A stretch of DNA of 64,000 nt from an uncultured Gammaproteobacteria bacterium. Its GTDB lineage: Bacteria; Patescibacteriota; Patescibacteriia; Patescibacteriales; GWC2-42-12. The translations under genes were made by a program, and so were the position numbers. The notes beneath the pieces were generated by a model. It did not search any database. It was not told the DNA's origin and saw only the letters and a list, made by a program, of their open reading frames with translations. The DNA lies in the NCBI GenBank assembly GCA_964560005.1, contig CAZLKB010000004.1:12112-76111 (forward strand), read 5' to 3'. This document shows, in pieces, positions 2,630 to 63,065 of the stretch (the first letter of the stretch is position 1; each line of letters starts with the position of its first letter).

Positions 2630-3541
2630 TTATTCACTGATAAAAGCAATCCCGAAATAGCTGGTAGTGGCCGCCGGTTTAGAGATGGCGTAATCAAAAG
2701 AGTTGTTATGCCGGATAAAAGAAGCTTTAAGGCCAGCTTGCTCGGCCAAGAGCATTGCCATAGCCAGGCCGGCCGGCGAATCCACATAGTCATTATTTAA
2801 ACCGTAAATTTTATCTATTAAAAAATTTTCTATTAAACTCTTGGTTTCTTCGTCTTTTAAATCCGCTTCCCCCTTGGTTAGGTAGTGGGAAAAGTCCAGC
2901 GAAAAAATAACCAAGCTGTTTTTCCCCAAGCGGCTTTTAAGCCAGCCGCTTAGTTTTTCAGCTTCAACTTTCCCGGCATAAGAAGACAAAACTATAGGCA
3001 GGACTCGCGCCTGGGGCAAATAATGCTTAATAAACGGCATGATGGCGCCGACCGAATGTTCATTCGCCAAAGCCGATGGGTTAGGCTCAAGCCGGTTATC
3101 GGTTAAAAATGATTTCACCAGTTTATCGTCGGCGAGCAAATCGCCTTCCGGCGTTTGCCAATTAACCGGCGCGCTAGCCAGCGGTTCGCGGCCGACATTA
3201 CTGTGGTTTGGCCCGATCACAACCACCGTATCAATCGGCCGGCCGCTGGCCGTTTTTAAGAGTTCGGCGATAATATCGGCGCCGACTAAGTGATGCGGCA
3301 CGATAATCGCGTAGACATCAGGTCTGGGCGCTATTTCACCGGCCTTTTTTACGGCCGGCAAAAATTGTTCCCGGCTATAAAAACTATCTTGCGTCTCCAC
3401 TATGGGCAAACCTGAAATATTTTTTCGGTCAGCCGGAGGCGGTGATAATTTTAACGACTTGATAAACCAAAAACAAAGTAGAAAAACCAAGCAGCAGCTT
3501 ATGCCGGAAATAATAATTATTATATTAGCTCGCTTATTCAT
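2630..3541 (-). CDS. Membrane-anchored Memo-like / AmmeMemoRadiSam-system-protein-B-like protein
   Basis: 303 aa with an N-terminal TM helix. The motifs IIVPHHLVG, VIGPNHSN and SLDFSHYL resemble the His-rich Memo/LigB-type fold. Its start overlaps the A2M stop by 1 nt (TAATG). Confidence 0.5.
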   Translation of the reverse strand: MNKRANIIIIISGISCCLVFLLCFWFIKSLKLSPPPADRKNISGLPIVETQDSFYSREQFLPAVKKAGEIAPRPDVYAIIVPHHLVGADIIAELLKTASGRPIDTVVVIGPNHSNVGREPLASAPVNWQTPEGDLLADDKLVKSFLTDNRLEPNPSALANEHSVGAIMPFIKHYLPQARVLPIVLSSYAGKVEAEKLSGWLKSRLGKNSLVIFSLDFSHYLTKGEADLKDEETKSLIENFLIDKIYGLNNDYVDSPAGLAMAMLLAEQAGLKASFIRHNNSFDYAISKPAATTSYFGIAFISE

Positions 3542-6500
3542 TATTCGGTAATGGTTAGGCTTTGGGAATTAGAGTAATTGATAAAATCGGGGTTGATAAA
3601 CGATTGGATAATGGCGGGTTCGGCTAAATAGGCTCCGCGATTTTTAACCCGCGCGTAATACTTAATATAATTCCCGGCGCAATAACTGTTGCGCCAATCC
3701 CGATTAATAAAATATTTCACCATTTGCCCGTCGGTGTTATAGGGGTACCAATAATTGCAGTCATAGCGAGAACCGCGATAATATATTTTCGTAACCGGCG
3801 CCAAGCCGCTCGGCAATATATCGGTAATCTGGTAATCGCCGGACAGAGCTGATTTCTTAAAAACCGGATAGAGCCTGACTTCCACCAAATCGTTTTCCTT
3901 AAAGCGCAGAGTTGACACTCCGTTAACATAATATTCGCGGGTGATGTTTATATCGCTGTCACGTTTAACTTTATTTAAGTCCAACTGTTCAATATAGCGC
4001 ACGGAAATTCCCACTTCGCCGGTAATGGACTTAAAATTAAGGCTGGCGGCTTGCTCCGGCGCCAGTTGGAAAAAATATAAATTACTGCCGGTGACATTGG
4101 CTTCCTTGGTTTCGCCGGACAATTCGTAAGTCACCTTGGCCGGGCTGGGTTTTAAATTAGGCAGAACCTGCTTTATATAATTTAATTTTTCCAAATTAAA
4201 CAGATTTTCGCTATTTTTATTTTCGCCGTATAAAACCTGATTCTCGTCTAAATATTTAAACAAGCCCTGAGCTTCTTTAATATCCAGCGAAGCGGCCAAG
4301 ACGGCGGCTACGGCCGTAGCTTGAAAGACTTCATCGTAATTATTGCTGACGCGGATGATTATTTGCGGTAATTTTTCCTCGCCGTATTGCTTTAAAACTT
4401 CGTAAAAAATTGTCTGACTTAACTCTTTAGCTCCTAAATCAACCAGCGCTTGAGCTAGATACAGACGCTCCTTAGGGTTTAAGTCGGTCCGCTTGAGCCA
4501 AGAATTAATTCGGGTCAGAACCGGCTCGCCCAGTTCGGCCAAACCGAACAAGGCATAACTTATTTCTTCGCGGTTAGCCTTATCGTCTTCCAGTTTATTA
4601 AAGAAGTATTGGGCTAAAGAAATTTTGTCAAACGGCTCCGCGCCCAAGGCTGATACTCTGGCGGAAAATTCCAAATCTTCGCCGCTATACGGCAGTAAAG
4701 CCAGGCCGCCGGTGGAAAGCTGATAATCAAAAGGGTTAAAAGCCGGTTCAATAATATCTTCTTGGTAATATTTTTTTAAGGTCTCCCGGCTTAATTTACG
4801 AACATATTTTTGATCAAGGCGGTCGCCCCAGGACCAGCTTAAACTCAACAGCGGGTCATATAGTTCATTCCGTCCCAAATCGCTTAACACCACGGCTATG
4901 GGAAAATTATTAATCGCTTTTACCTTAGTTTCAATAGTCAACCGGCTGCTGGTAGAAGTCTGCCCCGCCAGCCGGGAACTAATCGCCTTTAGCGGCAGTT
5001 TAATGGAGTCGTTGCCTTTGGCTGATTTTAATTCATAAACGATTTTGTGCTCGCCTAAAGACAGCGCCGGTAAATTATAATAAACCGGCTTAAAGGCCGA
5101 GGCGGAAAGAACCGGTGATTTATCCAAACCCAGAGTCGGAGCTGACAACGAGAAATCAACTTTGTCTACGGCCGCCAAAGCGGTGCCATAGGCGCGCAGG
5201 CGCGCTGAAGGCTTATCCGCGGTTAAATATTCATCACCGATAGTAACTTCGGCGAAAACCGGCAAAGACACCGGAATTTTTGCCACGCTTACCCCGGCCC
5301 ATAAATCTTTAGTCAGGCCCTGCGCGGTCACGCGCCAAGAAGTGATGTTATCAGGTAATTTAAATTCAACGGTTGCCCGGCCGCCGCTATCGGCGCGGAC
5401 TGATTGAAAGACGGCGGCATCGGTAAAATACTCTCTGGCTCCGCCGCCCTTTTCCGCGTTATGAACCCAAATGCCATCGGCAATATAAGTATGCTCCGGA
5501 TCAATGCCAAGATTGTAGACTTTGACCAATTCATGCTTTGTTTCTATCTCGCGCACCAAGACTTTTTCTTTGGCCGGAGACCAAAGCCAGTCGCCCACTT
5601 TCAGGCGGCCGGCGTCAACAAAATGATTATTGGCGAAAACCTGGTGTTCCGGAGTAATCTTGATTTTTTTATTGATGATCAGGTATTCACCGACCAAGTG
5701 CTCAACCACTTCTTCTACCCGGCCAGAAGTTAATTGCCGGCTGACCGGGTCGTTAAAGGTTAGAACCTGGTCGCCTACTACCATTTTTTCTATCGGCTTA
5801 TTGGTACCGTCGACCAATAAGATATTGGTCCCGGCGAGGAAACAACCGCCTTTTTCCGCGCCGCTGGAATTATCCACCAGGCTGGCGTGAGTTGAAAAAG
5901 CGATTAAAGTGCCCATACCAACTCCGGTATAGATTGATTCTAAGGGGGCGGCCGTATCTTCGGCTACCGCGTAATAGGCTTCATCCACTAAATTTATGTT
6001 TATTTCCGCCGGCAACGGCTTATTATTCCTGTCGGTTACCGCTATATTTAATTTGACATTCTCGCCCGGCAAATAACTTTTTTTATCGGTTTGTATATTG
6101 ACTTTTAGTTCCCTGTCCGCTGCCTTAAAATTAGCTGATTCGCCCCAGTAGCTCGCGCCAGTGGAGTGGTACGACCGGCCGTCAAAATAAACTCCAACCA
6201 AGTTGACATTCGGCACATCGCGGGATTCAAAAGCGAAGCTGTATTCGTTTTTACCGGCTACCTGATATTCTTGCAAGCCATTTTGTAGCTGCAGATAGAG
6301 AAAGCGGTTATTGCCGTTTTGCACCGGCTCATCATTTTTCTTGAAAATCGCCTTGACTTGATCGTTAATTGAGTAGGTTTTATTTTGCTGAGTTACGGGA
6401 TCGGCTAAGTTCAAATGATAATATTGGTAATTAAAGCCGTCGTAGCGATTAAGAGAAACGCCGTCATAGTAATATAAATAACTGATTCTTTTGTCAAATC

Positions 6501-9036
6501 GTGCCTGGCTGTCAATAAAGCGATACTTAAGTTGGTAGGAAATTTCCGGTTCAAGCGGCTGGTTAAAAATATATTTGCCGTCTTGGTCCGTTGTACCGCT
6601 AAAGCTCCTGACTTTTTCCTCTCGCCTGTCGTAGCTGTAAGTCTTATAACTGGTTTTGTTGATAAAGTCGTAGGCCGTGCCGGTTTCTTTCTTGGTATAT
6701 GAAATCTTTATTAAATCGCCTTCAATTCTAATCCCGGCCGCGGGCAAGTCGCCTAAGCTCCGGCTCCCCGACTGGTCGGCTTCCAGTTTAGCCAAATCAA
6801 TTAACTTGGCGGTCATCTCCAGCTGGCCTTGGCCTTTGGCCGGATAAATGGTCTTGCTTTCCAGATAGGCTTTCGGGCCGTAAAAATTAATATATGTTTC
6901 AGCGCTGATTTCCGCCAATTCGGAATTTTCCGGAGCGATTGATAGCCTGCTTGATTTCGGCCAACAACCGTAATCATCCGGGCAATCAATATAATTTTCT
7001 GTATAGGTTAAATCAGCCTCCCCGTTCTCGTCGGTGGTAAATATTTTTACTGTTTTTTCCGGAGTTTCAAATTTAAGCGATAAGGCCGGTACCGGAGTGC
7101 CTTCAAAAAAACTGGCTTTAACTTTTAAATTAACCGTATCGCCGGCGAAAGCGGCGTGGCGATCCGGCACCAGGCTTAATTGAAAAGCCGGCTTGGTATA
7201 AGGCATGATGGTGATATAGCTTCGCCTAACCACGGTTTCGCCGATTTTTAATTCCAGGGTGTAATAATCCGGCCGCAAATTTTTTATCGCCATCTCGCCT
7301 TTAAAGCTATTCAAATCGCCGATGTTTAACTCCTGGGTCATAATGGCTATGGGTTGGTAATAATAATCAACATAGCCTTCTTTAAAAAGCGTTAAAGTGG
7401 CTTTTCCATTTAAAGATTCGGAGCCGCGGTTTTTAACCAAGCCCCAATATTTTATGGTGTCGGTCGCTTGATAGCGCGGCCGATCGGTATAAAGATAGAG
7501 CCAGTAATCATCGGCCGCGATCGGACGGTTCCACCACCAATTATGAGATATTTGCGAGGCCGGTAAAATCAAGATATTATTATCTTTGGTTAATTTAAAA
7601 TATTGTCGCTTAGCGGCTTTTTCATCGGTAGAGCTATTTAATATCTCAGCCGGCGTATTAAATACCGCCACGCCCTGCGCGTCGGTTAAAACCGACAATG
7701 GATTATCAAGCAATTCCAGTCTAACCCCGCTAACCGGACTCTTGGTCAGGCTATTATTTAGCCAAAAAATCGTCTGGGTTTTTGTCACATTGTAATAAGC
7801 TGATAAATCGCTTACTTGCAGCCAGACCTGCACTTTACTGCCGTTGTTTTTTAATTCGGCCAAATAAAATCCCGGGGGCATTTTTTCCGGAAATTCTATA
7901 TATTTTATCTGGTTGCTGACTTTCACCGGCACGGTAAAGGCGCTGGCCTTTTTCAATTTGGCCGTATCCAGCAAGAAATCGTCCTTACTATAAGACCACC
8001 AGGGCAGGTTATCGCGTTCACGAATTGACTTTAAATATTCCTGCCAATCATTAAAACGAAAAGTTTCAACTTCCAGCTTATCGGGCGCCGCGTATGAAGA
8101 TACTTGTATGATCGGCGGGTATTGGGAGTCGCTTTCAATTAAGCGGTTATAAACTCCATACCAATCATTGGATCTAGAGTCGCTAGCCAGTTGAGTTTCA
8201 AAAGTAAAAATATAATCGGAGGCCAGGGTTTCCGCCGATTCGGCCAGCGGCAAACCGCGCTTAATCGTAACTTGATATAGAGTTCTGAAATTTAAGTTTG
8301 TTTCCGGAATAAAGACTAAAGTACGGCCATGCCGTTCAAACTCGCCCTTAACCGATGGATTAATGGAAAAATATTTTTCGTAATCGTAATAATTATCGTG
8401 GCTAAAAGTTATTTCAACGCCGGAATTAACCGGAACATTCGTGCCGGCGTCGCGAGGAATGCTATGAAGCACTTTAAAACTATCTTTAACCTGATAGACC
8501 CAGGAATAATCCCGTTCTTGGGTTTGATTATTTTCGTCAACAAAGGCCGTGGCCAAAGCAATCCGCACCAGCGTATTAGCCGGCAGAGCCCGGCGCGGCG
8601 CTATCTGCCATTCGGTATCGGAAATTTTTTTAAAATCATAAGGAAAATCAGGCTGAATCCGCAAATTATCTTTAATTAAATTCACATCCAGCGGTTCTTT
8701 GCTCTTTATAACATAAACCGTATCAGCCTTAACGCCCAAGCTGTCAATATTTAGCGGTTTTAAAGTAAAATTATCGCTGGCATTAGCGACGCTGATAATC
8801 AATTTTGAAAAGCCGCTAAACAAATCTTGGCTTTCCGGAGTCTGGCCGCCGGAAGGACCGGTTGTTCGCGTAGAAAAATAAAAAAATGCTGTTGCTGACG
8901 CGACTAATAAAATTAACAGCGAAGCCGCGCCTACTCCGGGCCAAATTCGTTTATTTTTCTTATCCGGCTGGAGCGGCGAGGAAGGCTCGGCCGGGGGCAT
9001 ATTTTCCCTTACCGGCGGATTATGTTCGTTTTCCAT
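3541..9036 (-). CDS. Membrane-anchored alpha-2-macroglobulin-like protein with no CxEQ thioester motif, interrupted by a Hint/intein-like domain
   Basis: The ORF runs 3541..9102. The probable start is M23 (ATG 9034-9036, MENEHNPP), because the upstream codons overlap the neighbouring gene. TM helix: GVGAASLLILLVASATAFFYF. The A2M-family block REYFTDAAVFQSV..GRATVEFKLPDNITSWRVTAQG follows the insert. I found no C-x-E-Q anywhere in the translation. Confidence 0.7.
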   Translation of the reverse strand: MENEHNPPVRENMPPAEPSSPLQPDKKNKRIWPGVGAASLLILLVASATAFFYFSTRTTGPSGGQTPESQDLFSGFSKLIISVANASDNFTLKPLNIDSLGVKADTVYVIKSKEPLDVNLIKDNLRIQPDFPYDFKKISDTEWQIAPRRALPANTLVRIALATAFVDENNQTQERDYSWVYQVKDSFKVLHSIPRDAGTNVPVNSGVEITFSHDNYYDYEKYFSINPSVKGEFERHGRTLVFIPETNLNFRTLYQVTIKRGLPLAESAETLASDYIFTFETQLASDSRSNDWYGVYNRLIESDSQYPPIIQVSSYAAPDKLEVETFRFNDWQEYLKSIRERDNLPWWSYSKDDFLLDTAKLKKASAFTVPVKVSNQIKYIEFPEKMPPGFYLAELKNNGSKVQVWLQVSDLSAYYNVTKTQTIFWLNNSLTKSPVSGVRLELLDNPLSVLTDAQGVAVFNTPAEILNSSTDEKAAKRQYFKLTKDNNILILPASQISHNWWWNRPIAADDYWLYLYTDRPRYQATDTIKYWGLVKNRGSESLNGKATLTLFKEGYVDYYYQPIAIMTQELNIGDLNSFKGEMAIKNLRPDYYTLELKIGETVVRRSYITIMPYTKPAFQLSLVPDRHAAFAGDTVNLKVKASFFEGTPVPALSLKFETPEKTVKIFTTDENGEADLTYTENYIDCPDDYGCWPKSSRLSIAPENSELAEISAETYINFYGPKAYLESKTIYPAKGQGQLEMTAKLIDLAKLEADQSGSRSLGDLPAAGIRIEGDLIKISYTKKETGTAYDFINKTSYKTYSYDRREEKVRSFSGTTDQDGKYIFNQPLEPEISYQLKYRFIDSQARFDKRISYLYYYDGVSLNRYDGFNYQYYHLNLADPVTQQNKTYSINDQVKAIFKKNDEPVQNGNNRFLYLQLQNGLQEYQVAGKNEYSFAFESRDVPNVNLVGVYFDGRSYHSTGASYWGESANFKAADRELKVNIQTDKKSYLPGENVKLNIAVTDRNNKPLPAEININLVDEAYYAVAEDTAAPLESIYTGVGMGTLIAFSTHASLVDNSSGAEKGGCFLAGTNILLVDGTNKPIEKMVVGDQVLTFNDPVSRQLTSGRVEEVVEHLVGEYLIINKKIKITPEHQVFANNHFVDAGRLKVGDWLWSPAKEKVLVREIETKHELVKVYNLGIDPEHTYIADGIWVHNAEKGGGAREYFTDAAVFQSVRADSGGRATVEFKLPDNITSWRVTAQGLTKDLWAGVSVAKIPVSLPVFAEVTIGDEYLTADKPSARLRAYGTALAAVDKVDFSLSAPTLGLDKSPVLSASAFKPVYYNLPALSLGEHKIVYELKSAKGNDSIKLPLKAISSRLAGQTSTSSRLTIETKVKAINNFPIAVVLSDLGRNELYDPLLSLSWSWGDRLDQKYVRKLSRETLKKYYQEDIIEPAFNPFDYQLSTGGLALLPYSGEDLEFSARVSALGAEPFDKISLAQYFFNKLEDDKANREEISYALFGLAELGEPVLTRINSWLKRTDLNPKERLYLAQALVDLGAKELSQTIFYEVLKQYGEEKLPQIIIRVSNNYDEVFQATAVAAVLAASLDIKEAQGLFKYLDENQVLYGENKNSENLFNLEKLNYIKQVLPNLKPSPAKVTYELSGETKEANVTGSNLYFFQLAPEQAASLNFKSITGEVGISVRYIEQLDLNKVKRDSDINITREYYVNGVSTLRFKENDLVEVRLYPVFKKSALSGDYQITDILPSGLAPVTKIYYRGSRYDCNYWYPYNTDGQMVKYFINRDWRNSYCAGNYIKYYARVKNRGAYLAEPAIIQSFINPDFINYSNSQSLTITE
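5458..5844 (-). other. 129-aa Hint (mini-intein / bacterial intein-like) domain inside the A2M-like ORF
   Basis: Block A is CFLAGTNILLVDG (Cys codon 5842-5844). Block B is KITPEHQVF (TxxH). Blocks F/G are VYNLGIDPEHTYIADGIWVHN (Asn codon 5458-5460). The next residue is Ala. There is no endonuclease domain. Confidence 0.8.
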
Positions 9037-9047
9037 AAAATTATTAA

Positions 9048-9263
9048 TTAAAAACTGATCCAAAAATAAAAGGCGCCGATGAGGAATATAACTCCTCCCC
9101 AAAATATCTGCCCGCCCTTAAACATTTGAGCTTTTTTATTAACACGACCAGGAAGCACGATTTTTTCAATTCCTTTAAACAATATTGCCCAGCCTAAAAT
9201 AGTTGCGGCGACCGGCCAGTCGGCGACCCAAACATTGTGTGCAACAACGGTAGCTAAGCCCAA
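9048..9263 (-). CDS. Small hydrophobic membrane protein, function unknown; start uncertain (TTG, or an upstream ATG via a frameshift)
   Basis: 71-aa ORF, GLATVVAHNVWVADWPVAATILGWAILFKG...IFLIGAFYFWISF. An ATG at 9292-9294 would join this frame if the A6/T6 run at 9265-9270 were one base shorter. Confidence 0.4.
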   Translation of the reverse strand: MGLATVVAHNVWVADWPVAATILGWAILFKGIEKIVLPGRVNKKAQMFKGGQIFWGGVIFLIGAFYFWISF

Positions 9264-18008: not shown

Positions 18009-18099
18009 ATATTATTTGTTATTAGCATTTAATTACAGTTTATCACAATTGAGAATAATTTAAAATTTTATGCAAAGACCGACAGGGACCGGTCGGATA

Positions 18100-18134
18100 G
18101 AAAAACGACCGTCCCCCAGACAGGGGTCGGTCGC
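18100..18134 (-). terminator. Hairpin terminator after tRNA-Asn
   Basis: CGACCGTCCCC (18106-18116) pairs with GGGGTCGGTCG (18123-18133) with one mismatch, followed on the minus strand by TTTTT. Confidence 0.55.
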
Positions 18135-18155
18135 TTTGGAACTTTTTTTATCCTG

Positions 18156-18227: not shown

Positions 18228-18437
18228 AGATTTTAGATTATAAATTTTATAGTGAAAATTTTAACTTTGCTACAAATGTTCAATTTACACTTGTCCCGAG
18301 CATAGCGAGGGGCTACCCGGGAAAATTATGATTACTGATTTACTTTTCAATAATAAATATCTGCCGACAGGCAGTATTAACATATTAAATAATAATATGA
18401 CTTTAGTCAACCCTTCACGCTTTAAAAAAACTAAACA

Positions 18438-19847: not shown

Positions 19848-19877
19848 GTCCGCCAAAGGCGGATCCGCCTCTGGCGG
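19848..19877. repeat. Twin abutting GC hairpins: TCCGCC-nnn-GGCGGA, twice
   Basis: TCCGCCAAAGGCGGA (19848-19862) is immediately followed by TCCGCCTCTGGCGGA (19863-19877). Confidence 0.8.
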
Positions 19878-19907
19878 AAAAATTGAGAATTGAAAATTGA
19901 AAATTTT

Positions 19908-21197: not shown

Positions 21198-23222
21198 TTA
21201 TTTTACGCCTAGCAAATTAATTTCCTCGGTTAAGGCCTTAAACTCCCGCATCAGCGCCATCAGTTTCTCGGTTTTCTCCGCTACCGGCAGGTTTTCTTTT
21301 TCGGCGGAAGCGATTAATTTAATAATTTGATAACGGCGCTTGCTTAAATGGTTCATCTTTAAAGCAGCCACTAAATTTATTATTTCCGTTTTAGCCTGTT
21401 CTGCCGTGTAGTCGTAAAAATCTTTATCAGCTAAAAGAACCAGCCTGTCTAATAAGCTGGCGCACCGATAGTTATCTCCGCTGTTAGTAATTTCATTATT
21501 ATCTTGATTATCTGATTCTAAATTCTCAGGATTATTAAACCAATCCTTTAAATTCTGATAATTTATAGTTAAATCAAAGCCTCCCCCCTCGTGAGTCCAT
21601 AAATCAATAAGCTTATTATAATAAATAATTAAATTTTTGTAAAGTAATTTATAATCATCCCCGGTCTTAGGCAGGCCTACCGAACCGGGCGAAGCCGAAG
21701 TAGCCAATTCGTCCGGCGTTAGATGATTAATAATATACTCCAAATGCGTCGGATATCTTAGCGCCAGCGCCAAGAGCAACTCGGATAACTTAGCCTCCCG
21801 AGTCTGTTTTAAATCTTTAAATACTTGCCCGGGCTGTCCGCCCGATTTAGCTCCCCCGGCCGGCGGCTCGTGCTTTTTCTCCTCTGCCCGACGACCCAAA
21901 GAAATCATTTCATTTAATTTCTCCCTTAATAAATTTTCATTAATATCAACTTCTTGGCTTAATTTTTTGAGCCAAAAATCCTGTTCAATTTTTGAACCGA
22001 ATTTAACGATTATTGATAAGAGTACATCAATGCTTTGGCGCTGGCCTTCATAATCGTTTTTATTGAATTTTACGAAGGTCTTGTCAAAATAATATTGCAT
22101 CATGGGCTTGGCGGTTTCTACCGCCCTCCGCCAGGCTTCCGGATTATTTTTAATGCACTCGTCAGGGTCTTTGGCTCCCTTTATCTCAATTACCTTAATC
22201 TGCATTTCTGCCCGCATGGCCTGGGCGATGCCGCGTTCGGCCGCCAAATCGCCGGCTTTGTCCATGTCAAATGCCAAATATAAATTATTGGAATATCTTT
22301 TAATCAAACCAACCTGCTCGCCGGTTAGCGCCGTGCCCGAAGAAGCGATCACATTATTAAAACCGTTTTGGTGAGCGGTGATAGCATCCATCTGGCCTTC
22401 AACCAAGATCGCCGCGTCCTCGGCCTTGATAGGCATCTTGGCTTTATCCAGGCCGAATAAAATTCTTGATTTATCATAAATCATAGTCGCCGGCGTATTG
22501 ATATACTTGCCCATTTTTTCTTCCGCTTCCTTTTCCGGCGAAACGCGCGCGGTAAAACCGACGGCATTACCGCTGATATCGCAAATGGGAAACATGATTC
22601 TACCTCTAAAACGATCGTAAAAACCCGCTCGCCCCGAGCCTGCCTGCCGTGAGCTTGCCGAACCGGCTGAAGGATCTTTCTTGATCGACAAGCCGGCCAA
22701 AAAAATTTCATTTTCGCCGAAACCCTTGCCCTTTAAAAAATTAACCAAAGTCTCCCAGGCGTTCGGGCTATAGCCTAACTGCCAGGCCTCAATCGTGGCT
22801 TCGGTCAAGGCTCGCTGTTTTAAATACGCCCGCGCCGACTCTGCCGCCGGGCTGTCTAAGAGCACTTTATGATAAAATTTAGCCGCTAACTCCACAATAT
22901 CCATTAAAACATTTCTCTTGGAGGCCAGCACCGGGTCGGCCTTTTTCAAAACTACATTGGCCTTCTTGGCCAAGAGCCTTAAAACTTCAATGAAGCTCAG
23001 ACTTTCTATTTCCATGACAAAAGAAAAAATATCGCCACCCTTGCCGCAGCCGAAACAATGCCAGATTTGCTTTTCCGGGCTGACCATAAAAGACGGGCTT
23101 TTTTCCCGATGAAACGGGCAATTAGCGCGAAAATTCAAACCAGCCGCTTTAAGCGGAATATATTCGCGGATAATTTCCACGATATCCAGTTTGGCTTTTA
23201 TTTCATCTGACGGATTGGGCAT
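21198..23222 (-). CDS. dnaG: DNA primase DnaG
   Basis: Zinc ribbon CPFHREKSPSFMVSPEKQIWHCFGCGKGGD plus TOPRIM block ILVEGQMD. The ORF track starts at 23249, but the first 9 codons lie in the palindromic repeat, so I place the start at the ATG at 23220-23222 (MPNPSDEIK). Confidence 0.9.
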   Translation of the reverse strand: MPNPSDEIKAKLDIVEIIREYIPLKAAGLNFRANCPFHREKSPSFMVSPEKQIWHCFGCGKGGDIFSFVMEIESLSFIEVLRLLAKKANVVLKKADPVLASKRNVLMDIVELAAKFYHKVLLDSPAAESARAYLKQRALTEATIEAWQLGYSPNAWETLVNFLKGKGFGENEIFLAGLSIKKDPSAGSASSRQAGSGRAGFYDRFRGRIMFPICDISGNAVGFTARVSPEKEAEEKMGKYINTPATMIYDKSRILFGLDKAKMPIKAEDAAILVEGQMDAITAHQNGFNNVIASSGTALTGEQVGLIKRYSNNLYLAFDMDKAGDLAAERGIAQAMRAEMQIKVIEIKGAKDPDECIKNNPEAWRRAVETAKPMMQYYFDKTFVKFNKNDYEGQRQSIDVLLSIIVKFGSKIEQDFWLKKLSQEVDINENLLREKLNEMISLGRRAEEKKHEPPAGGAKSGGQPGQVFKDLKQTREAKLSELLLALALRYPTHLEYIINHLTPDELATSASPGSVGLPKTGDDYKLLYKNLIIYYNKLIDLWTHEGGGFDLTINYQNLKDWFNNPENLESDNQDNNEITNSGDNYRCASLLDRLVLLADKDFYDYTAEQAKTEIINLVAALKMNHLSKRRYQIIKLIASAEKENLPVAEKTEKLMALMREFKALTEEINLLGVK

Positions 23223-23233
23223 GATAAAAGTTA

Positions 23234-23464
23234 AAAATGTAAATCTCAAAATGTAAAATTAGAAATTCTAAATCTTAATATCCCTGCCTGCCGGCAGGCA
23301 GGTAAACCCTAAACAAATCCAAAATCATAAATCCAAATATTTTAAACAAAATTTAATTTTTTAAATTTAAAATTTCGGTCATTTGAATTTGTTTAGAATT
23401 TAGGATTTAGATATTAGAATTTTAAATTTTGCATTGTCATTTTACATTTTGAGATTTACATTTT
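23234..23464. repeat. 231-nt imperfect palindrome with perfect 26-nt terminal arms (AT-word family A)
   Basis: AAAATGTAAATCTCAAAATGTAAAAT (23234-23259) is the exact reverse complement of 23439-23464. The interior is also roughly self-complementary and contains the 20-nt GC palindrome CCTGCCTGCCGGCAGGCAGG (23283-23302). Confidence 0.9.
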
Positions 23465-23496
23465 ACATTATTTGTAAATTTTACAATTACCAATTT

Positions 23497-23811
23497 TTAG
23501 GCTCTAAAACTCGTTGGTACAAAACTTTTTATCCTGGCCATCTCGCTCTCCACCAACTCCCCGTCGTATTCGGCGTTATGGGCGTGCGCCCCTTCGTAGC
23601 TCGCCTGTTTTTGATCCAAATGCAAATTAAAAACTATCTGGCCGTTTTGCTGTTCAAGGTAAAGGTGAAATCTGGGGTAAAACCCCCGGTTAAGCCGGCG
23701 TACAAAGCTCTCCTGTCCGGTATTTCTGTCTACCAAATATGCATAACCGGCTTGCCTTAACAGATTTTCCGGCGCTTGATCTAAAATATTTTCATCTAAT
23801 ATTAGCTTCAT
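23497..23811 (-). CDS. Hypothetical 104-aa protein
   Basis: ORF MKLILDENILDQAPENLLRQAGYAYLV...RFHLYLEQQNGQIVFNLHLDQK. I recognised no family. Confidence 0.5.
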   Translation of the reverse strand: MKLILDENILDQAPENLLRQAGYAYLVDRNTGQESFVRRLNRGFYPRFHLYLEQQNGQIVFNLHLDQKQASYEGAHAHNAEYDGELVESEMARIKSFVPTSFRA

Positions 23812-23886
23812 AATTTGAACGATTAGGTTATCTCTTAGTTATTTTATCATAGTTTAAAAATTAAATTAGGTCAAAGACGGAAAATT

Positions 23887-25964: not shown

Positions 25965-25986
25965 AGTTATTTATTAATCCTGACTT

Positions 25987-26098
25987 GCGGAGAGTGAGGG
26001 ATTCGGCCTCGGCTCTCGCCTCGCCTTCGCTCGGCTCGGTCTGGCCACCGCCTCGCGGTTTTGCCAGCTGGCAAAACTCGCTCCGGCGTTCGAATCCC
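25987..26098. other. Unassigned GC-rich structured element next to tRNA-Ser (decayed tRNA or unknown RNA/repeat)
   Basis: The ends GGGATTCG (25998-26005) and CGAATCCC (26091-26098) are inverted repeats. TTTTGCCAGCTGGCAAAA (26059-26076) is a perfect 18-nt palindrome. 25987-26005 resembles the reverse complement of a class-II tRNA 3' end. Confidence 0.4.
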
Positions 26099-26109
26099 TT
26101 TTCAAATAA

Positions 26110-26150
26110 AAATATTTTTTGTTAAGCAAGAAGCTTAACAAAAAATATTT
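26110..26150. terminator. Hairpin with a perfect 18-bp stem directly after tRNA-Ser
   Basis: AAATATTTTTTGTTAAGC, a 5-nt loop (aagaa), then GCTTAACAAAAAATATTT. Checked base by base. Confidence 0.7.
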
Positions 26151-26154
26151 AATG

Positions 26155-27532: not shown

Positions 27533-27605
27533 AAAATTTTTAATTTTCAATTTTTAATTTTTAGATAATTTTTAATATCTTAATTTTAAAAATTAAAAAT
27601 TTTTA
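27533..27605. repeat. AT-word palindromic spacer (family B, TTGAAAAT/TTAAAAAT words)
   Basis: AAATTTTTAATTTTCAATTTTTAATTTTTAG ... CTTAATTTTAAAAATTAAAAATTTTTATT. The arms are roughly reverse-complementary, and the spacer ends at the DsbA-like start codon. Confidence 0.6.
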
Positions 27606-33385: not shown

Positions 33386-33399
33386 GTTTATATATTAAA

Positions 33400-33535
33400 T
33401 TCTAATATCTAAACTCTAAACAATATCAAAATTCTAATATCAAATGACCAAAACAAGAATTCAAAAGCATTTATTTGGAATTTTGGATTTTGAACATTTG
33501 AATTTGTTTAGGATTTAGTATTTCGGATTTAGAAT
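33400..33535. repeat. AT-word palindromic spacer (CTAAAT/TTAGAA/TTTGAA words)
   Basis: The left arm is AAATTCTAATATCTAAACTCTAAACAATATCAAA. It roughly matches the reverse complement of the right arm CATTTGAATTTGTTTAGGATTTAGTATTTCGGATTTAGAATTT. The right arm is nearly identical to 23378-23420. Confidence 0.65.
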
Positions 33536-33543
33536 TTATTATT

Positions 33544-34267: not shown

Positions 34268-34429
34268 ATAAACAATTTCTAATTTTCAATTTCTCCCCCT
34301 CCACTAAAACTACGGAGGATAAATAATTTCTAAATAATGTTTTAATGTTTTAATTTCTTAATTGAAACATTAAATCATTGAAAATTGTTTGAAAATTGAG
34401 AATTGAAAATTGAAAATTATTATTGTTTA
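34268..34429. repeat. AT-word palindromic spacer (family B), about 160 nt
   Basis: The left arm is ATAAACAATTTCTAATTTTCAATTTC (34268-34293). The right arm is GAATTGAAAATTGAAAATTATTATTGTTTAT (34399-34429). An internal hairpin CCTCC..GGAGG is present. Confidence 0.6.
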
Positions 34430-41904: not shown

Positions 41905-42014
41905 ACAATAACCAATGAATTAATGACTTAATTTTCAAACAAGGATGATTATGCTTTGAAAATTTAGACATTGAAAATTTATTGAAAATTGAAGCTTGAA
42001 AATTGAAAATTAAT
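41888..42014. repeat. AT-word palindromic spacer (family B)
   Basis: CTATTTTCAATTTTCAAACAAT (from 41888) faces TTGAAAATTTATTGAAAATTGAAGCTTGAAAATTGAAAATTAAT (to 42014). Confidence 0.6.
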
Positions 42015-42780: not shown

Positions 42781-45700
42781 TTACTGAATATTAATCGGCG
42801 TAGCGCTAATTGTATTGGAATTGGCGCTTTCTCGGCTATCAGCATCTATAGATCTTACTATGAAATTATAAAGTGTGCTATTAGTTAAACCGGTGACAAC
42901 TTGCGGATTAGCGGCCGTACCGGCTGTAGGAGAGGCAACAAACTTGGTAAATACGGTTCCGCCCTGATTATAATATACTCTATAACTGACCGCGCCCGAC
43001 GCCGCATCCCATGATAATCTCACTGATCCATTGCCAATACCCCTTAAAGCTAAATTAGCCGGAGGCGCGAAAGGTTTGGCTGAAATTTTATCGGAATTAA
43101 CGCTCTCCTTGCCATCGGCGTTAACTGATCTAACTATTAAATTATAAGTTACGCCATTGGTTAGGCCGGTAATAACCTGCGGATTAGCGGCCGTGCCGGC
43201 TGTGGAGCTGGCAATAAATTTAGTAAATACGGTTCCGCCCTGATTGTAATATACTCTATAGCTGACCGCACCCGGCGCCGCGTCCCATGATAGTCTTACC
43301 GATCTATCGCCAATACCCCTTAAAGCTAAATTAGCCGGAGGCGCGAAAGGTCTGGCAGAAATTATATTGGAATTAGCGCTCTCTATATTATCAGCAATAG
43401 ATCTAACTATAAATTTATAAGTTAATCCATTAGTTACCGGAATAATTTGCGGATTAGTAGCCGTTCCCGCCGTAGAAGTAGCGACAATAGTAGTAGTAAA
43501 GGTATCTCCGCCATTAGTATTATAATATACTTTATAGCTATTTGCGCCCGACGCCGCCTCCCATCTGACTTTTACTTCGCCATTACCTACGCTGACTAAA
43601 GATAAATTAACTGCCGCCGACGCGAACGGAGTGGCCGCAACCGTAGTGGTGGCGCTCTTATTGCCGGACGAATCATAAGCCACTACGCCGAAGCAATATT
43701 TTATTCCATTGGTAAGATTACTGGTGGTCGCTGTTTTATTATTAGTTGCGAATGAAGCGCCGAAGTTGACATTAGCGCCGCATGTATCATTGGCTTTATA
43801 AAACACTCTATAATTTACCGCTGTGTCATCATTTTCAGTCCAGGTTAAGGCGACTTGCCTATCCTTAGGAGTGGCTGACAATGAAGCCGGCTGTACCGGC
43901 GGCGTAGTATCGGCCGGCACCACGGTTACTTCGTTAGAATAAGCGCTTTCGTCGCCATTAGAGCTTAGCGAAGTAACCGCGAAATAATATTTTACCCCGT
44001 TGGTTAAATTGTTTATGGTCGCGGAAGTACCGGTGCTTGGAACAGATTTTGTATAGGTTTTTGGCTTAGTGCCGTAGTATACTTTATAGCCGGTGGCGCC
44101 GGAGATAATATCCCAGGTTGCGCTTACTCCACCGCCCGAATCCAAAGCTGTAACCTCTAAATTACTTGCTGCACTGGGCAGGCTTTCCCTAAAAAAATAA
44201 AATTCTTTTAAAATATCAACCTGGCAGGTGCCGGAGTTACTGCCACAAGGTGTATTTATGGAATTAGCCTCTGAACAGCTGCTGTTTGAACAGCTACAAA
44301 TCGAATTATAATCGCATTTGCCGCTCTTATCACTGCAGATATCCCCCTTTATCTTATCCGTGCAATCGCCGGTTCCGTCATCGCAATTTAAAGAATTGCT
44401 TCTGCAGATTAAATTCATACCCCTGATGGTGGCTGTGTTGGAAATCGCGGGTAAGTCATCGGCCGTTCCCGGTCCGCCCGCGTCGCGGCAGTAAGACAAT
44501 TTCATGTTAGTCGGGGTGCAGGTACCTCCTCCAGCCGGACATCCTGAAGGTTCTTCCCACGGCTCCCAGGTGCCGTCAGACTGCATCTGCGGCCAAGGAT
44601 TATCGCAAACCATTAAATAAACATCGGCTTCTGCCGGAAAAGAGCCTCCTCCGGTTCCGACCACTGTAGCCGTGGCGGTAATTTCCGCTTCGCCCGTGGT
44701 TACTGTGGGCAGAGCTTTAACTAATTTTTTATTATCTGGTAAAGTTCCTGTGGTTGGAGCTAAAACTTTAAAAATATCTTCATTGCTGGAACTCCAACCC
44801 CAAGTCCAGTAGTATATATCGGTTAGCGGATATAAGACCGTGCCGTCGGCCGCGTAGGCGTTAGCCGCGAACAGTTTGTCGCTGTCCTTAATCTTATCAA
44901 AAGCCGCCTTATCGTTCGGATCATTATCTGTAATATTGTCCTTATTGGTTTGAAAAAGATACGAAGCCGGTTCAAGCTCGGCGTAGACAATCTTGCAAAT
45001 GCCGTGGTCGTCGCCGCTGTCCGGCCTGGTGGTGAAAAACCAAATTTTACCATTATAAGTTTTACCGTTAAATTGAGAATTCGGTGAAAAAGGTACCGGA
45101 GTCATGCCCACGCCATAAGCGCTTAAGACTCCTTCTCTTATAGCATCGGCGGTATTACCGTCCCCTTTAATAATAACATAATATTGCCTGGACGGCGCTA
45201 AAACTTTTTCCGGCCTGAATTCCAGCACTGATTTGCCGACCGCGTTGTCGTAGCCGCTAACCGTGCCTTTAATGGCGCAAAAATTTCCTGTCAGCGCCAT
45301 TGCGTCTGATGTGAATAATTTTTTGACTAGGGGTATCTTGGCTAGGACTGATTTTACTCTGGCTAAAAAGGTGGGTTTATAAGCCGCGGTTAAATATTCG
45401 GTATCGGCCGGGCAAGGATCTAGGTTGTAATAGCCAGCCACGATAATATTGCCGTTAAAGCTCTCTGTCTGCATGGACTGGCTAAAAGTGGCTTGAATTA
45501 CCGCGTTGCGGCAGACGTTTTCGCTGAAAGGCGCTGGTTGTTGACCGGCCACTGCCGGCCTGGCGTGGCAGCAAGTGTCCTGCCCGCAGCCGTTCGTATC
45601 AGGACTGTCGCAACTATTATCATCCGTACAGCCGCAGCAAAGTCCGCGCTCATTAGTATCACTGGTACAGGGCGATTGATTCGGCTTGCAGGTTAATTTA

Positions 45701-48700
45701 AGCTTTGCGCATTGGTCCGGGTTAGCATCTGGATCGCAACAACAAGTTCCGCAGGGAGGAGTGGAAGGAATATTACCGGTATCAGTTAGGCAAGAAAAAC
45801 CAACACATCTATTAATATCACAGCTTGGCGAAGCGTTGTAAGCGGAGCAATTTTCGCCGAAATCCGGCTTCTGGCATTGATTATCGCAATTATCTGTCTT
45901 ATAGTCGCCATCTTTTACCTTCGTAGTGTCGCAACTATTAGCATTAACACCGGTGCCGCAATTATAATAAGCGCAATAATTATAAGGCGGTTCAGAGACA
46001 TAATCTTCGCCGCCGCGACAAGCATTACTAATTTTGGCGTCAACACAGCAAGAGCCGACGCCGGCGGTAGAACAAGCCAAGGCTGTAGTTAACTGCGCGC
46101 AATCCTTACAAACTCCTTGCCCGCCGGCGGCCGAAGTATCGCAATATTTTCCGCTGGTGCCGGAACAATTGCAAGCGTCGTTGCTAGCGGATATATCTAC
46201 CAGGTTATTGGTGCCTCTGACCGTACAGCCGGTGCAAAGTCCAAAAGTGTCGTCCGTACTGCTAGTGCCGCTGCCGCAAGTGCCTTGGCACTTTAACGGC
46301 GCGCAACAATCCTCCGCGTCATGGCCGGCGCGGCAACAACAGTCGCAACTGGCGCTGTTGCTTGGCGCGACGGCGGCGCATTTGTTATTACCGGTGCAGA
46401 TTGAGCCGGCCGGGCAGACATTAGTATCAACCGCGCAAACACCGGCTCCATCCTGATTCAAACAATTAAAACCAATATCGCATGAAAAGCAAGTCAAAGT
46501 ATTTTCTGTACATTTACCGCCTCCGATATTAGTCCAGCCGGTCGGGCAGGAATAATTAGTGCTGATTTGCCATTTACTATTAACACAAATTGCTTCAACA
46601 TCATGGCTATTTACATCTTGAACCGTTTTTGGTAAATCGCAAGTTGGATCAATCTTTTTAACGCATCTATTGATTTTTTCTTCATATTCGCATAAATTTA
46701 ACTGGCAATATCCGCTCGTACCGCAAACATCGCCATTTTGTTTGCCCAGACAGCTGCCTGCCCCGCCAACGCATTTTGAACACGACGCCAAACTATTACA
46801 GCTAAAGTCGCAATCGCCGACGATGCGCGAACCGCTGTAAAGCTCGTTGACCTCGTCCGAGCTTAAAGCCCGGTTATATACGCGCACATCGTCAATAAGG
46901 CCGTTGAAAAATCTACTGCCATTGCCATTGGCGAACCAAGCTCGTCCGATCTGTACCGTTGAACCAGAATCATCACCCGGACCGCTGAGTCTTTCCCATT
47001 CCTTAGAACCATTCACATATAATATTATGTTGCTTGAGGTGTAGACGGTTACGACATGGTACCACTGGCCTGCACTAACCGGTTTTCCGGTGTCTGCTTC
47101 CGCGTTTCCGACATGCATGTTCCATTTTCCTAGCCTTACTTCGGTTCCTTTATCCCAAACCGCGTTATCGGTACAAAGAAAACAGCCCGGCTCATATATA
47201 GATTCTGGCTTCACCCAAGCGGCGTAAGATATCGGTTCATCATCAATTTTAAGCGGTGTATCAACATAAGTATTTGATCCGTTAAACTTAAGCGCCTGGC
47301 CGATTCTGCCGGGCACAATATTAGAGCCTGTTAAATTATTGAGTGTACCGTCCTGATCCTGGCCGGAACTGTCAGAGGCTTTCTTTCCGGCTATGTCTAT
47401 ATCCGCGCTGTCAAAAGTCCACCAGCCGATCAATCCGTTGCTTAATGTACTGCCGCTACTAACCGAGCATTTGCCCGGCGAATTGGGACAAAAATAAGTA
47501 TCCGCGCATAAATTGCCGTAACCGGAGCAGGATTCAGCCGGAGCCGGTATGCATAGACAAGAATTATTACAGGTAAAACCAGGATCGCAGGCACCCGCTT
47601 GACATCCGGGTTCATTCACATTTGTATCGCAGGTGGAAACTTTACAAATACAGTCCTGGTTACAGTAATAACCAGGATCGCAGGCACCCGCTTGACATCC
47701 GGGTTCATTCACATTTGTATCGCAGGTGGAAACTTTACAAATACAGTCCTGGTTACAGTAATAACCAGGATCGCAGGCACCCGCTTGACATCCGGGTTCA
47801 TTCACATTTGTATCGCAACGCACTGGTTCTTGGCAGAGGCAAGAAGTAGTATTACAAACATACGGAGAAGTACATTTAGATTGAGTTATATCGCAATATC
47901 CTTTTTTAGCGCCATTATAACAAGGGTCGCCCGGACCAGGTTCAGTGTCAAAATCCCACTCATAAACCGAAGAATTATATTCGGGAAAGCAGGCTTCTTG
48001 GACGTCTACTCCGTCTCTGCATCTGCCTACGAATGGAGTGCCTTTAGGGCAGCAAAAATTAGTCGCGCCGCATTCGCTATCAATTTTACAGGTACCAACC
48101 GTGAAATTCAGGCCATTGCCGACCACTTCAGGGCTGTTTTTAACCACTCTTACCGGACCGGTAACCGCTTGTTGATGAACCGTAGTAACTGATTTGTCCG
48201 GATCCTGCCCCCAACTCTTGATGGCCGCTCCGGATTGATCATAATTTAAATAAAATCTTACCTTGCTATTAGTATCTTGAACTCCAAAATACTCGCCCCA
48301 TAAACTTACATCATCACCAACCTGCCCCATAATTGGCTTAATTTTACATAAGCTGGGCGCAAGCGGTTTATCTTGCTCAAAACTAAATTGCGATGGAGTT
48401 AACTTACTGGTGTCAATTAACCAGTTTTGGCCGCCGCTTTTAGCGATCTCCATAGCTATTAAACCTGATACTGTATTTTTTATTTCCGCCGGCACCTTGA
48501 CTATAACTTGCTTATCGCTCCAGATTGAATCGGCGCAGACTTCCGGAAAATTAAAATCCGCTTCCACTCCTTCTTTGACTGTACCCGATCCTATTTCTGC
48601 GCCGAAATATACCTTGCTATTTCCCCTAGTTGCTCCGAAGCCCTTGCCTCGAATCGTTACATATTGGCCTGTAGCCCCGTCAACCGGATCAAAAGAAGTA

Positions 48701-50955: not shown

Positions 50956-50995
50956 TGTCATTGCGAGCCCCGCATCTGCGGGGCGAAGCAATCTC
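50956..50995. repeat. GC-rich hairpin element of the TGTCATTGCGAG...CGAAGCAATCTC type
   Basis: The sequence is TGTCATTGCGAG-CCCCGC-atct-GCGGGG-CGAAGCAATCTC, lying 19 nt upstream of the giant gene start. Confidence 0.75.
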
Positions 50996-54565: not shown

Positions 54566-54577
54566 GAGGGGAAATTA

Positions 54578-54685
54578 ATGCAAAATGTAAAAATCAAAAT
54601 GGAAAATGACAGTGTAAAGTTAAAAAATAATTAATAATTTTACATTTTTAATTGTCATTTTGATATTTACATTTTCAACTTTAAA
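54578..54685. repeat. AT-word palindromic spacer (family A) in the divergent region between the 1004-aa gene and rel
   Basis: CAAAATGTAAAAATCAAAATGGAAAATGACAGTGTAAAGTTAAAAAATAATT roughly matches the reverse complement of AATAATTTTACATTTTTAATTGTCATTTTGATATTTACATTTTCAAC. Confidence 0.7.
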
Positions 54686-54691: not shown

Positions 54692-54720
54692 TTGACTTAT
54701 ACCCAGTTTTATAATAATAT
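54692..54720 (+). promoter_or_regulatory. Candidate promoter for rel
   Basis: TTGACT (54692-54697), a 17-nt spacer, then TAATAT (54715-54720), 35 nt upstream of the ATG. Confidence 0.3.
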
Positions 54721-54754
54721 TATAACATAAACAAAATAACAAAAGCAAATAGCC

Positions 54755-56748: not shown

Positions 56749-56752
56749 ATTT

Positions 56753-56972
56753 TGTCATTGCGAGGAGCGCCTTTAGCCCCGGGCTTGACCCGGGGGACGA
56801 AGCAATCTCGCTCTCTGTCATTGCGGGCTCCCGCCCGCATCGCCAGCGAAGCGTGGCGGGCGCGGTGACCCGCAATCCACCCCGCACTTTGCGGGGCGGC
56901 TCGCCTCCCGCCCTAGGCGGGCAGGTCGGCTTTAAGGCCGGAATGACAATAAGACGGTCGCTCGCAATGACA
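56753..56972. repeat. 220-nt GC-rich MITE-like element with perfect 12-nt terminal inverted repeats
   Basis: TGTCATTGCGAG (56753-56764) is the reverse complement of CTCGCAATGACA (56961-56972). The interior is a chain of GC hairpins. These are ATTGCGGG..CCCGCAAT, CCCGCC..GGCGGG, CCCCGC-actt-tGCGGGG at 56880-56896, and CCCGCC-cta-GGCGGG at 56907-56921. Confidence 0.8.
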
Positions 56973-56983
56973 ATTCAAAGAGT

Positions 56984-58803: not shown

Positions 58804-58814
58804 AGTAGAAAATT

Positions 58815-58920: not shown

Positions 58921-58923
58921 ACA

Positions 58924-61398: not shown

Positions 61399-61404
61399 TA
61401 AATA

Positions 61405-61509: not shown

Positions 61510-61517
61510 GAATTTCT

Positions 61518-63062: not shown

Positions 63063-63065
63063 TTT

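Follow-up and report, generated by a model that had tools for sequence, protein, structure and literature searches.

The 64,000-nucleotide stretch of DNA analysed here, which we call the window, has a GC content of 43% and comes from a bacterium of the candidate phyla radiation (CPR; Patescibacteria) whose DnaG is at most 74% identical to those of metagenome-assembled genomes of Parcubacteria and Candidatus Falkowbacteria. Our subject is its 274-nt spacer 23223-23496, which has a conserved small open reading frame (ORF) on one side and the primase gene dnaG on the other. The element in this spacer, named E1, is a nested composite in which a dispersed repeat, family A, lies outside, a second repeat, family B, inside, and a GC mini-hairpin innermost. 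Family A is a real, widespread and strongly conserved dispersed repeat family of CPR bacteria that lies between genes. It is previously undescribed, and the literature searched held no description of such repeats in CPR bacteria or Parcubacteria. With slightly better than even confidence, we read these elements as co-transcribed intercistronic hairpin repeats, not terminators, that resemble repetitive extragenic palindromic (REP) doublets forming hairpins (REPINs) or miniature inverted-repeat transposable elements (MITEs), and that are nested in the small ORF-dnaG spacer. CPR genomes are tiny and tightly packed, and both their non-coding DNA and the expression of their operons, which largely lack Shine-Dalgarno (SD) motifs, are barely understood. 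Part of their scarce intergenic space thus consists of conserved, heptad-periodic hairpin repeats between the stop and start codons of essential operons, which persist at orthologous sites far longer than synonymous likeness does, and which nest.

Anatomy of the repeat upstream of dnaG

E1 is made up of the following parts, where MFE stands for minimum free energy:

23229-23469: outer element, family A
23229-23259: family A left arm, AGTTA followed by AAAATGTAAATCTCAAAATGTAAAAT, the reverse complement of a type-1 arm
23260-23282: family B left arm, first part, TAGAAATTCTAAATCTTAATATC, heptads TAAATNN
23283-23302: 20-nt GC mini-hairpin CCTGCCTGCCGGCAGGCAGG, inserted in family B
23303-23338: family B left arm, second part, TAAACCCTAAACAAATCCAAAATCATAAATCCAAAT
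23339-23379: AT-rich apex of the whole hairpin in the MFE structure
23380-23422: family B right arm, CATTTGAATTTGTTTAGAATTTAGGATTTAGATATTAGAATTT, heptads GGATTTA/GAATTTA, with 11-nt words in common with 33495-33538
23423-23469: family A right arm, type 1, TAAATTTTGCATTGTC followed by ATTTTACATTTTGAGATTTACATTTT and ACATT
23470-23496, minus strand: residual spacer with a small palindrome ATTTGTAAATTTTACAAT and with AATTGGTAATTGTAAA (both as sense strand)

An earlier note on this DNA had described 23234-23464 as a single near-perfect palindrome of 231 nt. The two terminal 26-mers (23234-23259 and 23439-23464) are exact reverse complements, and the description fits the outer 26-31 nt, but not the whole 231 nt, of which the ungapped self-complementarity is 52% and a gapped alignment needs many indels. 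The palindrome is real but its reported extent was slightly too small, as the conserved ends of the family give 23229-23469 (241 nt), and instead of one palindrome the spacer holds a nest of three different dispersed repeats. When folded, the sense RNA (23496->23223) formed one long hairpin with an MFE of -81.4 kcal/mol, compared with -39.4 +/- 4.6 kcal/mol for shuffled sequences (z -9.1; 0 of 200 shuffles as good), and the DNA fold of 23234-23464 reached -48.5 kcal/mol (z -9.6). In the MFE structure, 92 base pairs (80% of bases) lie inside 23234-23464 and their median midpoint is 23349.0, the very centre of symmetry that had been proposed (about 23349). According to the RNA and DNA folds a hairpin or cruciform of about 90-100 bp is possible, as the note had suggested.

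Tandem Repeats Finder reported arrays of periods 7, 14 and 21 at 23225-23469, and the fraction of matching positions in the spacer was 0.51 at lag 7 versus 0.35 at other lags; when spacers were pooled, self-match peaks were likewise found at lags 7, 14 and 21. Exact copies of the 26-mer occur in the window at 23234 (plus), 23439 (minus) and 61484 (minus), together with two near copies, and a shuffle control gave 0 copies in 100 shuffles. AT-rich low-complexity sequence, which the note had named as the alternative, does not describe the arms, which are a sequence-conserved family shared with distantly related CPR bacteria; chance or low complexity is ruled out by the folding z-scores, the shuffle control and the cross-genome conservation. 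The further claim that most spacers of more than 100 nt have the same design did not hold, with a strong period-7 signal in only 8 of the 33 spacers of 60-450 nt and family A in only 4 window spacers, although related designs do recur in others.

The three layers can be told apart by their copies elsewhere. The outer arms of E1 read AAAATGT AAATCTC AAAATGT AAAAT with the complement on the opposite side, and 23432-23464 is identical to 61477-61509 over 33 nt; 11-mers of the outer arms recur at 54580-54680, 58810-58880 and 61440-61510, and those of the interior at 33400-33540. At 33386-33543, between two pilin-like genes, lies a free-standing, unnested copy of family B, which the interior of E1 matches in nhmmer with E 1e-4 to 1e-3. 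The family B left arm of E1 aligns to this copy and to free-standing copies in loci L194, L195, L097 and L083; outside the window, the family occurs free-standing in several metagenome contigs. As had been noted, the GC mini-hairpin is confined to the left half; against six other aligned family B copies it stands out as 20 nt cleanly inserted between TAATATC and TAAAC, and this one insertion suggests that the mini-hairpin may be mobile. Locus L157 likewise has family A outside and family B inside, and L103 carries one GC hairpin more in an arm than its orthologue L160. Mini-hairpins of the form CTGCC-N3-8-GGCAG occur in very AT-rich DNA in the window (18361-18374), in L082 (770), L099 (4110/4125), L133 and L159, and in these four loci they interrupt family A arms, sometimes as tandem pairs; they may be a separate micro-repeat family. 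In the residual spacer, the 16-mer AATTGGTAATTGTAAA at 23477-23492 is identical to part of the heptad array at the dnaG site of L010 and L011, whose DnaG proteins are 68-69% identical to that of the window. This 16-nt piece may be what is left of an older array that received the family A insertion.

The genes and signals around E1 are as follows:

21198-23222, minus strand: dnaG, with rpoD next downstream
23220-23228, minus strand: dnaG start codon ATG (23222-23220) and the 6-nt gap to the element
23497-23811, minus strand: conserved small ORF of 104 aa, stop codon 23497-23499
23846-23874, minus strand: promoter-like TTGACC-17-TATGAT upstream of the small ORF, with the same sequence in L002-L015

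The start of dnaG, which an ORF caller had put inside the element (23249), was moved to 23222 in the earlier note, and this is borne out by the Pfam family Zn_ribbon_DnaG, of which profile positions 7-95 match residues 6-94, and by relatives that begin MPNP... at the same codon. Since ORF callers put starts inside them, the repeats matter for annotation; they also have consequences when CPR genomes are assembled and binned or expression signals designed. The 26-bp stem of E1 stops 11 nt upstream of the dnaG AUG, and no SD motif precedes this start. SD-like motifs of 4 nt or longer were found in only 6 of the 51 window genes, with AT-rich sequence before the starts instead. As the organism hardly uses SD motifs, the AU-rich arm next to the start codon stands in for the usual AT-rich leader.

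The small ORF product has no Pfam match. In dozens of Falkowbacteria-like genomes this ORF, with its own conserved promoter, lies directly upstream of dnaG. In E. coli the corresponding operon is rpsU-dnaG-rpoD, with the terminator T1 between rpsU and dnaG, and the small ORF occupies the place of rpsU. The order small ORF-dnaG-rpoD and the TTGACC-17-TATGAT promoter are kept across 80 related species, and because this promoter lies upstream of the small ORF, the element lies within the small ORF-dnaG-rpoD transcription unit.

In about 36 relatives with this arrangement the spacer measures 5-576 nt (5-45 nt in many of them), and none carries family A. The longer spacers of relatives usually carry other heptad palindromes (GACAAAT, CAATTTT/AATTGAT, GGTTATA, CAATTAT/AATTGTT), that of L027 having a GC hairpin in one arm. 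A profile search found no family A arm in the loci of the 80 related species (551 kb) versus 8 arms in the 64-kb window. In silico removal of 23229-23469 gave a contiguous alignment to nine relatives; a search for empty sites among metagenome loci was informative for E1 only. The element is not specific to dnaG, and a dnaG-specific regulator was rejected as a candidate, given that the site in relatives is empty or holds unrelated heptad palindromes and that the 80 loci lack family A arms.

Family A in the window and in other CPR bacteria

With a profile built from the arms of related elements, exactly four copies of family A were detected in the window, and both arms were present in all of them:

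E1: left-arm match 23218-23267 (minus, E 1.2e-9), right-arm match 23419-23475 (plus, E 1.2e-12), about 150 nt between the arms
E2, 61395-61518: left-arm match 61395-61454, right-arm match 61464-61518; flanked by a LytR-family gene and der/engA, with 8 nt left before the der ATG
E3, 54573-54684: left-arm match 54573-54625, right-arm match 54653-54684; in the spacer of a divergent pair, relA/spoT and a pilin-like gene of 1004 aa
E4, 58798-58929: left-arm match 58798-58862, right-arm match 58875-58929; between a signal peptidase I gene and hisS

In E2, E3 and E4 only 10-28 nt lie between the arms. The right-arm 24-mer TTTACATTTTGAGATTTACATTTT is present without mismatch in 115 metagenome contigs from groundwater, sediment and sludge, with GC contents of 0.27-0.51, none of which comes from the species of the window. 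Genes common to the window and these contigs encode proteins of 38-71% identity (in L100, 62% for RpoD and 42% for DnaG). In most instances examined the 24-mer forms one hairpin end, the partner arm approximating AAAATGTAAAATGCAAAAATCAAAATGAAAAATGACAATGTAAAAT. Of the 254 arm-profile matches in the collected loci, which were ascertained by exact match to the 24-mer, about two thirds pair as hairpins with a conserved partner arm (101 pairs). Beyond the 24-mer, conservation runs on for 5 nt (NNATT) and then collapses, which defines the ends of family A. By profile bounds, elements are 63 to about 260-280 nt long with a median near 128, so that E1 is in the top few per cent, and their centres vary, being empty or holding a GC hairpin or a nested heptad element. 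A plasmid or phage origin was rejected, as blastn gave no plasmid match and the 24-mer was found in no viral contig. With Rfam, only two tRNAs of the window passed the gathering score, and the best scores within 23150-23560 were 13-26 bits against thresholds of 44-80.

The arms are heptad runs that read ATTTTNN on one side and NNAAAAT on the opposite side, and when aligned they show an invariant ATTTT every 7 nt with two variable positions NN. Two types can be distinguished, type 1 (ATTTTAC ATTTTGA GATTTAC ATTTT) and type 2 (ATTTTTC ATTTTGA TTTTTGC ATTTT). The two arms of one element are usually unlike at the fixed NN positions: among 89 elements, 55 combine type 1 with type 2 and 10, including E1, have two type-1 arms, and in elements without the exact 24-mer the arms are unlike in 17 of 18 cases. 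As a consequence of unlike arms, the typical stem pairs at 24 of 31 core positions (family median) with conserved mismatches. E1 is atypical in having two identical type-1 arms and a perfect 26-bp stem; 28 of its 31 core positions are paired, which places it among the five most perfect elements. Compensatory changes could not be scored, as the paired positions are invariant and the variable ones are conserved mismatches. Transition mismatches in 42 elements between tandem genes give G.U pairs more often on the sense than on the antisense strand (97 versus 66, p 0.02), an asymmetry that is weak evidence for a role at the RNA level.

Operon context and competing explanations

Family A lies almost only in spacers between a stop and a start codon, which it fills completely, with 0-8 nt between its ends and the adjoining stop and start codons and 3-8 nt to the start codon. 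Relative to the flanking genes, the elements are arranged as follows:

tandem genes, type-1 arm on the antisense strand: 23 elements
tandem genes, type-1 arm on the sense strand: 14 elements
divergent genes: 6 elements
convergent genes: 3 elements

No significant bias of orientation relative to transcription was detected among the tandem cases (23 versus 14). Copies are found between rpoB and rpoC in three species, upstream of gyrA in two species and in rplO-secY-adk-map. In L191, family A hairpins of about 120 nt (26-161, 1012-1144 and 1827-1962) occupy three of six junctions of the S10 ribosomal-protein operon, namely rplB|rpsS, rplV|rpsC and rpsC|rplP. A promoter cassette in the right arm (TTGTCA-17-TACATT, 9/12) was also considered and judged weak: elements with short arms have no -35 part, and in the left arm position 2 of the second hexamer is not an A. 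Real conserved promoters lie outside the arrays, such as the one upstream of the small ORF and TTGACT-17-TATAAT at about 54697-54725.

These positions bear on the idea that E1 is a terminator or attenuator before dnaG that keeps primase low, as T1 does in E. coli. The hairpin in the sense RNA is very stable, the GC stem at 23283-23302 stands in a U-rich context and the position between a small upstream gene and dnaG-rpoD matches. However, the consensus scan called no terminator in the spacer, the GC stem being followed not by a U-run but by GAUAUUAAG..., in line with the earlier remark that this is unlike an ordinary terminator, and canonical terminators are used elsewhere in the genome (in the window, for example, near 9310 and 19665). 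The copies at rpoB|rpoC, in rplO-secY-adk-map and at the S10 junctions are a strong argument against efficient termination, which at rpoB|rpoC, within the S10 and spc operons and in divergent spacers would be harmful or pointless, and relatives lack the element at their dnaG sites. A canonical terminator was rejected, and we give termination or attenuation in general only a slim chance.

At orthologous rpoB|rpoC sites, RpoB and RpoC are 85-92% identical and fourfold-degenerate third positions 47-52%. The arms reach about 85-96% identity there, and this range also covers the arm by which the loci had not been ascertained. Arm distances are 0.03-0.08 for orthologous pairs versus 0.16-0.18 for paralogous or unrelated copies, and copies within one genome are not homogenised. 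As the arms change several-fold more slowly than synonymous positions, they are not junk in free decay. The slow change at orthologous sites points to purifying selection or to recognition by a trans-acting factor, and some such factor, or a requirement at the RNA level, would then read the arms.

On the reading as REPIN- or MITE-like repeats, the elements would be copied, or kept, at the DNA level through a mechanism producing no target-site duplication (TSD); in 88 elements no TSD was found for lengths of 2-9 at offsets from -5 to +5, the matches being those of shuffled flank pairs. Their spread would resemble that of REPINs or of single-strand hairpin elements of the IS200/IS605 type rather than that of cut-and-paste MITEs. 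At the dnaG site, the apex of family A was later occupied by family B, and family B in turn by the 20-nt GC mini-hairpin. Transcribed within the operon mRNA, the elements would fold into an A-U-rich hairpin whose base rejoins the upstream stop and the downstream start, and such rejoining would account for their tolerance even at rpoB|rpoC and within the S10 operon. Because the perfect 26-bp stem ends 11 nt before an AUG without SD motif, the most likely role of the copy E1 is to damp or gate the translation of dnaG, or else to provide a cleavage site for double-stranded RNA; it would not terminate transcription of dnaG-rpoD. Should family A be mobile, it would be a new type of hairpin repeat without TSD, with a mobilising enzyme to be found, in a lineage not known for such elements; should it be functional, it would reveal an undescribed layer of operon control.

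Several observations weigh against this reading. Read-through, folding in vivo and the effect on dnaG are all things that we infer from sequence, and the G.U asymmetry is explicable by strand composition skew and by the common ancestry of copies. The search for a mobilising enzyme was negative: the 46 annotated window proteins that were scanned include no transposase, the 747 kb flanking the elements hold no recurrent gene family other than housekeeping genes, and no pair of ends encloses a transposase, long-range arm pairs enclosing ordinary genes. Nor was an autonomous insertion sequence (IS) with the same ends present in the 64 kb plus 747 kb of flanks, or a REP-associated tyrosine transposase (RAYT; Y1/HUH) domain among the 46 proteins or a recurrent candidate in the flanks. 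Copies within a contig differ by 0.163 versus 0.183 across contigs, so that no recent burst is visible, which suits old, constrained elements better than an active selfish one. As to constraint, the comparison rests on four orthologous pairs, the ascertainment by an exact 24-mer makes the conservation of that arm partly one by construction, and the deepest orthologous pair (flanks 67% identical), although still in place, has diverged like paralogues (0.25).

The main rival, and the more interesting one, is that the arms are cis-regulatory RNA of the host, in which AUUUUNN heptads are read singly by a single-strand-binding protein (cold-shock-domain or S1) that opens the hairpin and exposes the start lacking an SD motif, so that switches of translation or processing are under selection and spread is secondary. 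This would fit the constraint on arms at orthologous sites well beyond synonymous positions, the invariant ATTTT every 7 nt with conserved mismatches in place of perfect pairing, the ends 3-8 nt from start codons, the rarity of even weak SD motifs (6 of 51 window genes), the excess of G.U pairs on the sense strand, the lack of homogenisation within genomes and the presence of copies in core, highly expressed operons. It also has precedents, as CspB of B. subtilis binds T-rich heptamer direct repeats with one protein per heptamer (evidence reviewed in MacGregor 2015, PMC4679880), and binding of S1, Csp or CsrA has been proposed for intergenic TAACTGA heptads beside start codons (PMC4679880). 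Its presence is patchy, however, with 0 arms in the 551 kb of 80 related species against 8 in the window; the dnaG site is empty in close relatives, both orientations relative to transcription occur (23 versus 14) as do divergent spacers, and the binding protein is only hypothetical. On balance we regard this explanation as unlikely, yet as the most serious competitor. A bolder form of it, which we hold to be rather doubtful, would make family A, along with the other heptad hairpins related to it, a signal between cistrons throughout the CPR and not selfish DNA. The signal would be a metastable A-U hairpin with fixed mismatches, and a single-strand-binding protein of the cold-shock-domain or S1-like kind would read its U-rich heptads one at a time and control how the following cistron is translated or processed in operons without SD motifs, rpoB|rpoC and ribosomal-protein operons among them; E1 would be a strong 'off' variant that keeps primase low.

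Two further explanations were weighed against the REPIN- or MITE-like reading. The repeats might act as DNA, as sites of a nucleoid- or gyrase-type protein as in REP and bacterial interspersed mosaic elements (BIME), as DNA-uptake sequences or by cruciform extrusion, which would agree with the conservation of sequence and not of mere pairing, with the systematic difference between the two arms, with the lack of a strong orientation bias and with the DNA folding z of -9.6. Uptake sequences, however, are much more densely spaced and occur within genes too, whereas family A is strictly intergenic at about one copy per 16 kb; the sense-strand G.U bias, though weak, speaks for RNA, the DNA-binding protein is only hypothetical, and long perfect palindromes are generally unstable as cruciforms while most family members carry mismatches. 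We consider a DNA-level signal very improbable. The least probable explanation of all is a local origin without any family, in which slippage builds AT-rich heptamer arrays and local inverted duplication makes palindromes of them. Varied period-7 arrays do occur in 17-24% of spacers across the clade, also at the dnaG site of relatives, and heptanucleotide repeats, ascribed to slippage, are the commonest long class of simple sequence repeats in many prokaryotes (PMC4679880). A local origin is already contradicted for family A, however, since it gives no account of identical 24-33-mers with conserved partner arms in distantly related genomes, of conserved non-identical heptads and their slow change at orthologous sites, or of clean nested insertions. 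Slippage may be the origin of simpler arrays such as AAAATTG x4 at 19879-19905.

Other repeats of the window and comparison with known systems

Simpler period-7 arrays (AAAATTG/TTGAAAA, AAAATTA, AATTTTT) are located at 19851-19905, 27535-27601, 34378-34418, 41956-42011 and 63037-63063. The first follows twin GC hairpins, CCGCCAAAGGCGG and CCGCCTCTGGCGG, just downstream of rpoD, and between the last, a perfect run of AAAATTA x3.9, and the start codon of pth there are only 2 nt. A GC-rich long inverted repeat with the ends TTTTGTCATTGCGAG ... CTCGCAATGACAAT lies at 56753-56972 and fills the spacer 56749-56983 (GC 0.64, fold z -6.8), with a half copy at 50956-50967. The same ends also fill the dnaG-upstream spacer of L001 and adjoin family A arms in L084, L110 and L111/L116; apparently they mark a fourth family of dispersed repeats. 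Next to tRNA genes, two comparatively GC-rich spacers, 25965-26153 (z -6.4) and 18009-18154 (z -5.2), fold far better than shuffled sequences; neither matched an Rfam family at the gathering score, and the former overlaps the call of a 79-aa ORF. The window also has giant genes at 3541-9102 and 42781-50937: an 1853-aa giant protein has alpha-2-macroglobulin and pretoxin-HINT domains, and a 2718-aa giant ORF contains internal tandem repeats of 276 nt (x2.6) and 93 nt (x2.7, 98% identical).

Among known systems, integron attC sites, considered on account of the imperfect inverted repeats between ORFs and their fixed mismatches, were rejected as a counterpart, as family A ends in AATNNAAAAT and ATTTTNNATT and not in the R'/R'' core GTTRRRY, and its flanks are core housekeeping genes. 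Bacterial MITEs (for example Correia/NEMIS, RUP and Nezha) are similar to family A in being small, non-coding, AT-rich and bounded by terminal inverted repeats of about 26-31 nt, in their dispersed intergenic location, multiple copies and presence or absence at orthologous sites, and in forming co-transcribed hairpins that can be processed. Family A differs from them in that it has no TSD, that no autonomous IS shares its ends in the sequence analysed and that its two ends are systematically non-identical at fixed positions.

Elhai et al. are said to have described in 2008 small dispersed repeats (SDR) of Nostoc, hairpins of 21-27 nt whose insertions are reportedly clean and in many cases lie within heptameric tandem repeats. 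Similar to them are the 20-nt GC mini-hairpin of E1 (23283-23302) and the CTGCC...GGCAG hairpins that interrupt arms of family A, although in another sequence and another phylum and with only a handful of mini-hairpin copies seen here. The STRR heptamers of cyanobacteria are heptanucleotide tandem repeats. Heptanucleotide repeats with the unit TAACTGA are known from Beggiatoaceae, Cyanobacteria and Bacteroidetes (MacGregor 2015, PMC4679880). Like family A, both are of period 7, intergenic, often located a few nucleotides before starts in SD-poor lineages and patchy across phyla. They are direct arrays of one identical unit whose copy number varies by slippage, whereas the units of family A are degenerate at two positions and stand in fixed order in inverted arms, each of which is conserved as a whole over about 30-50 nt.

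The remaining comparison is with REPINs, the REP doublets that form hairpins (Bertels & Rainey 2011, PMC3116915). The arms of family A are AT-rich heptad arrays without internal palindrome, whereas a REP is a short GC-rich imperfect palindrome, often tagged with GTAG/CGTC; no RAYT gene was seen beside family A among the 46 window proteins or in the 747 kb of flanks; family A lies between stop and start inside core operons, REPINs mainly after genes; and family A is one sequence family over hosts with GC contents of 27-51%. In their architecture the two are alike, each having two inverted, conserved copies of about 25-35 nt with a short spacer that form a hairpin of about 60-130 nt in single-stranded DNA or RNA. 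Both are extragenic, multi-copy and over-represented, leave no TSD and form long-lived populations in which one element can be inserted into another.

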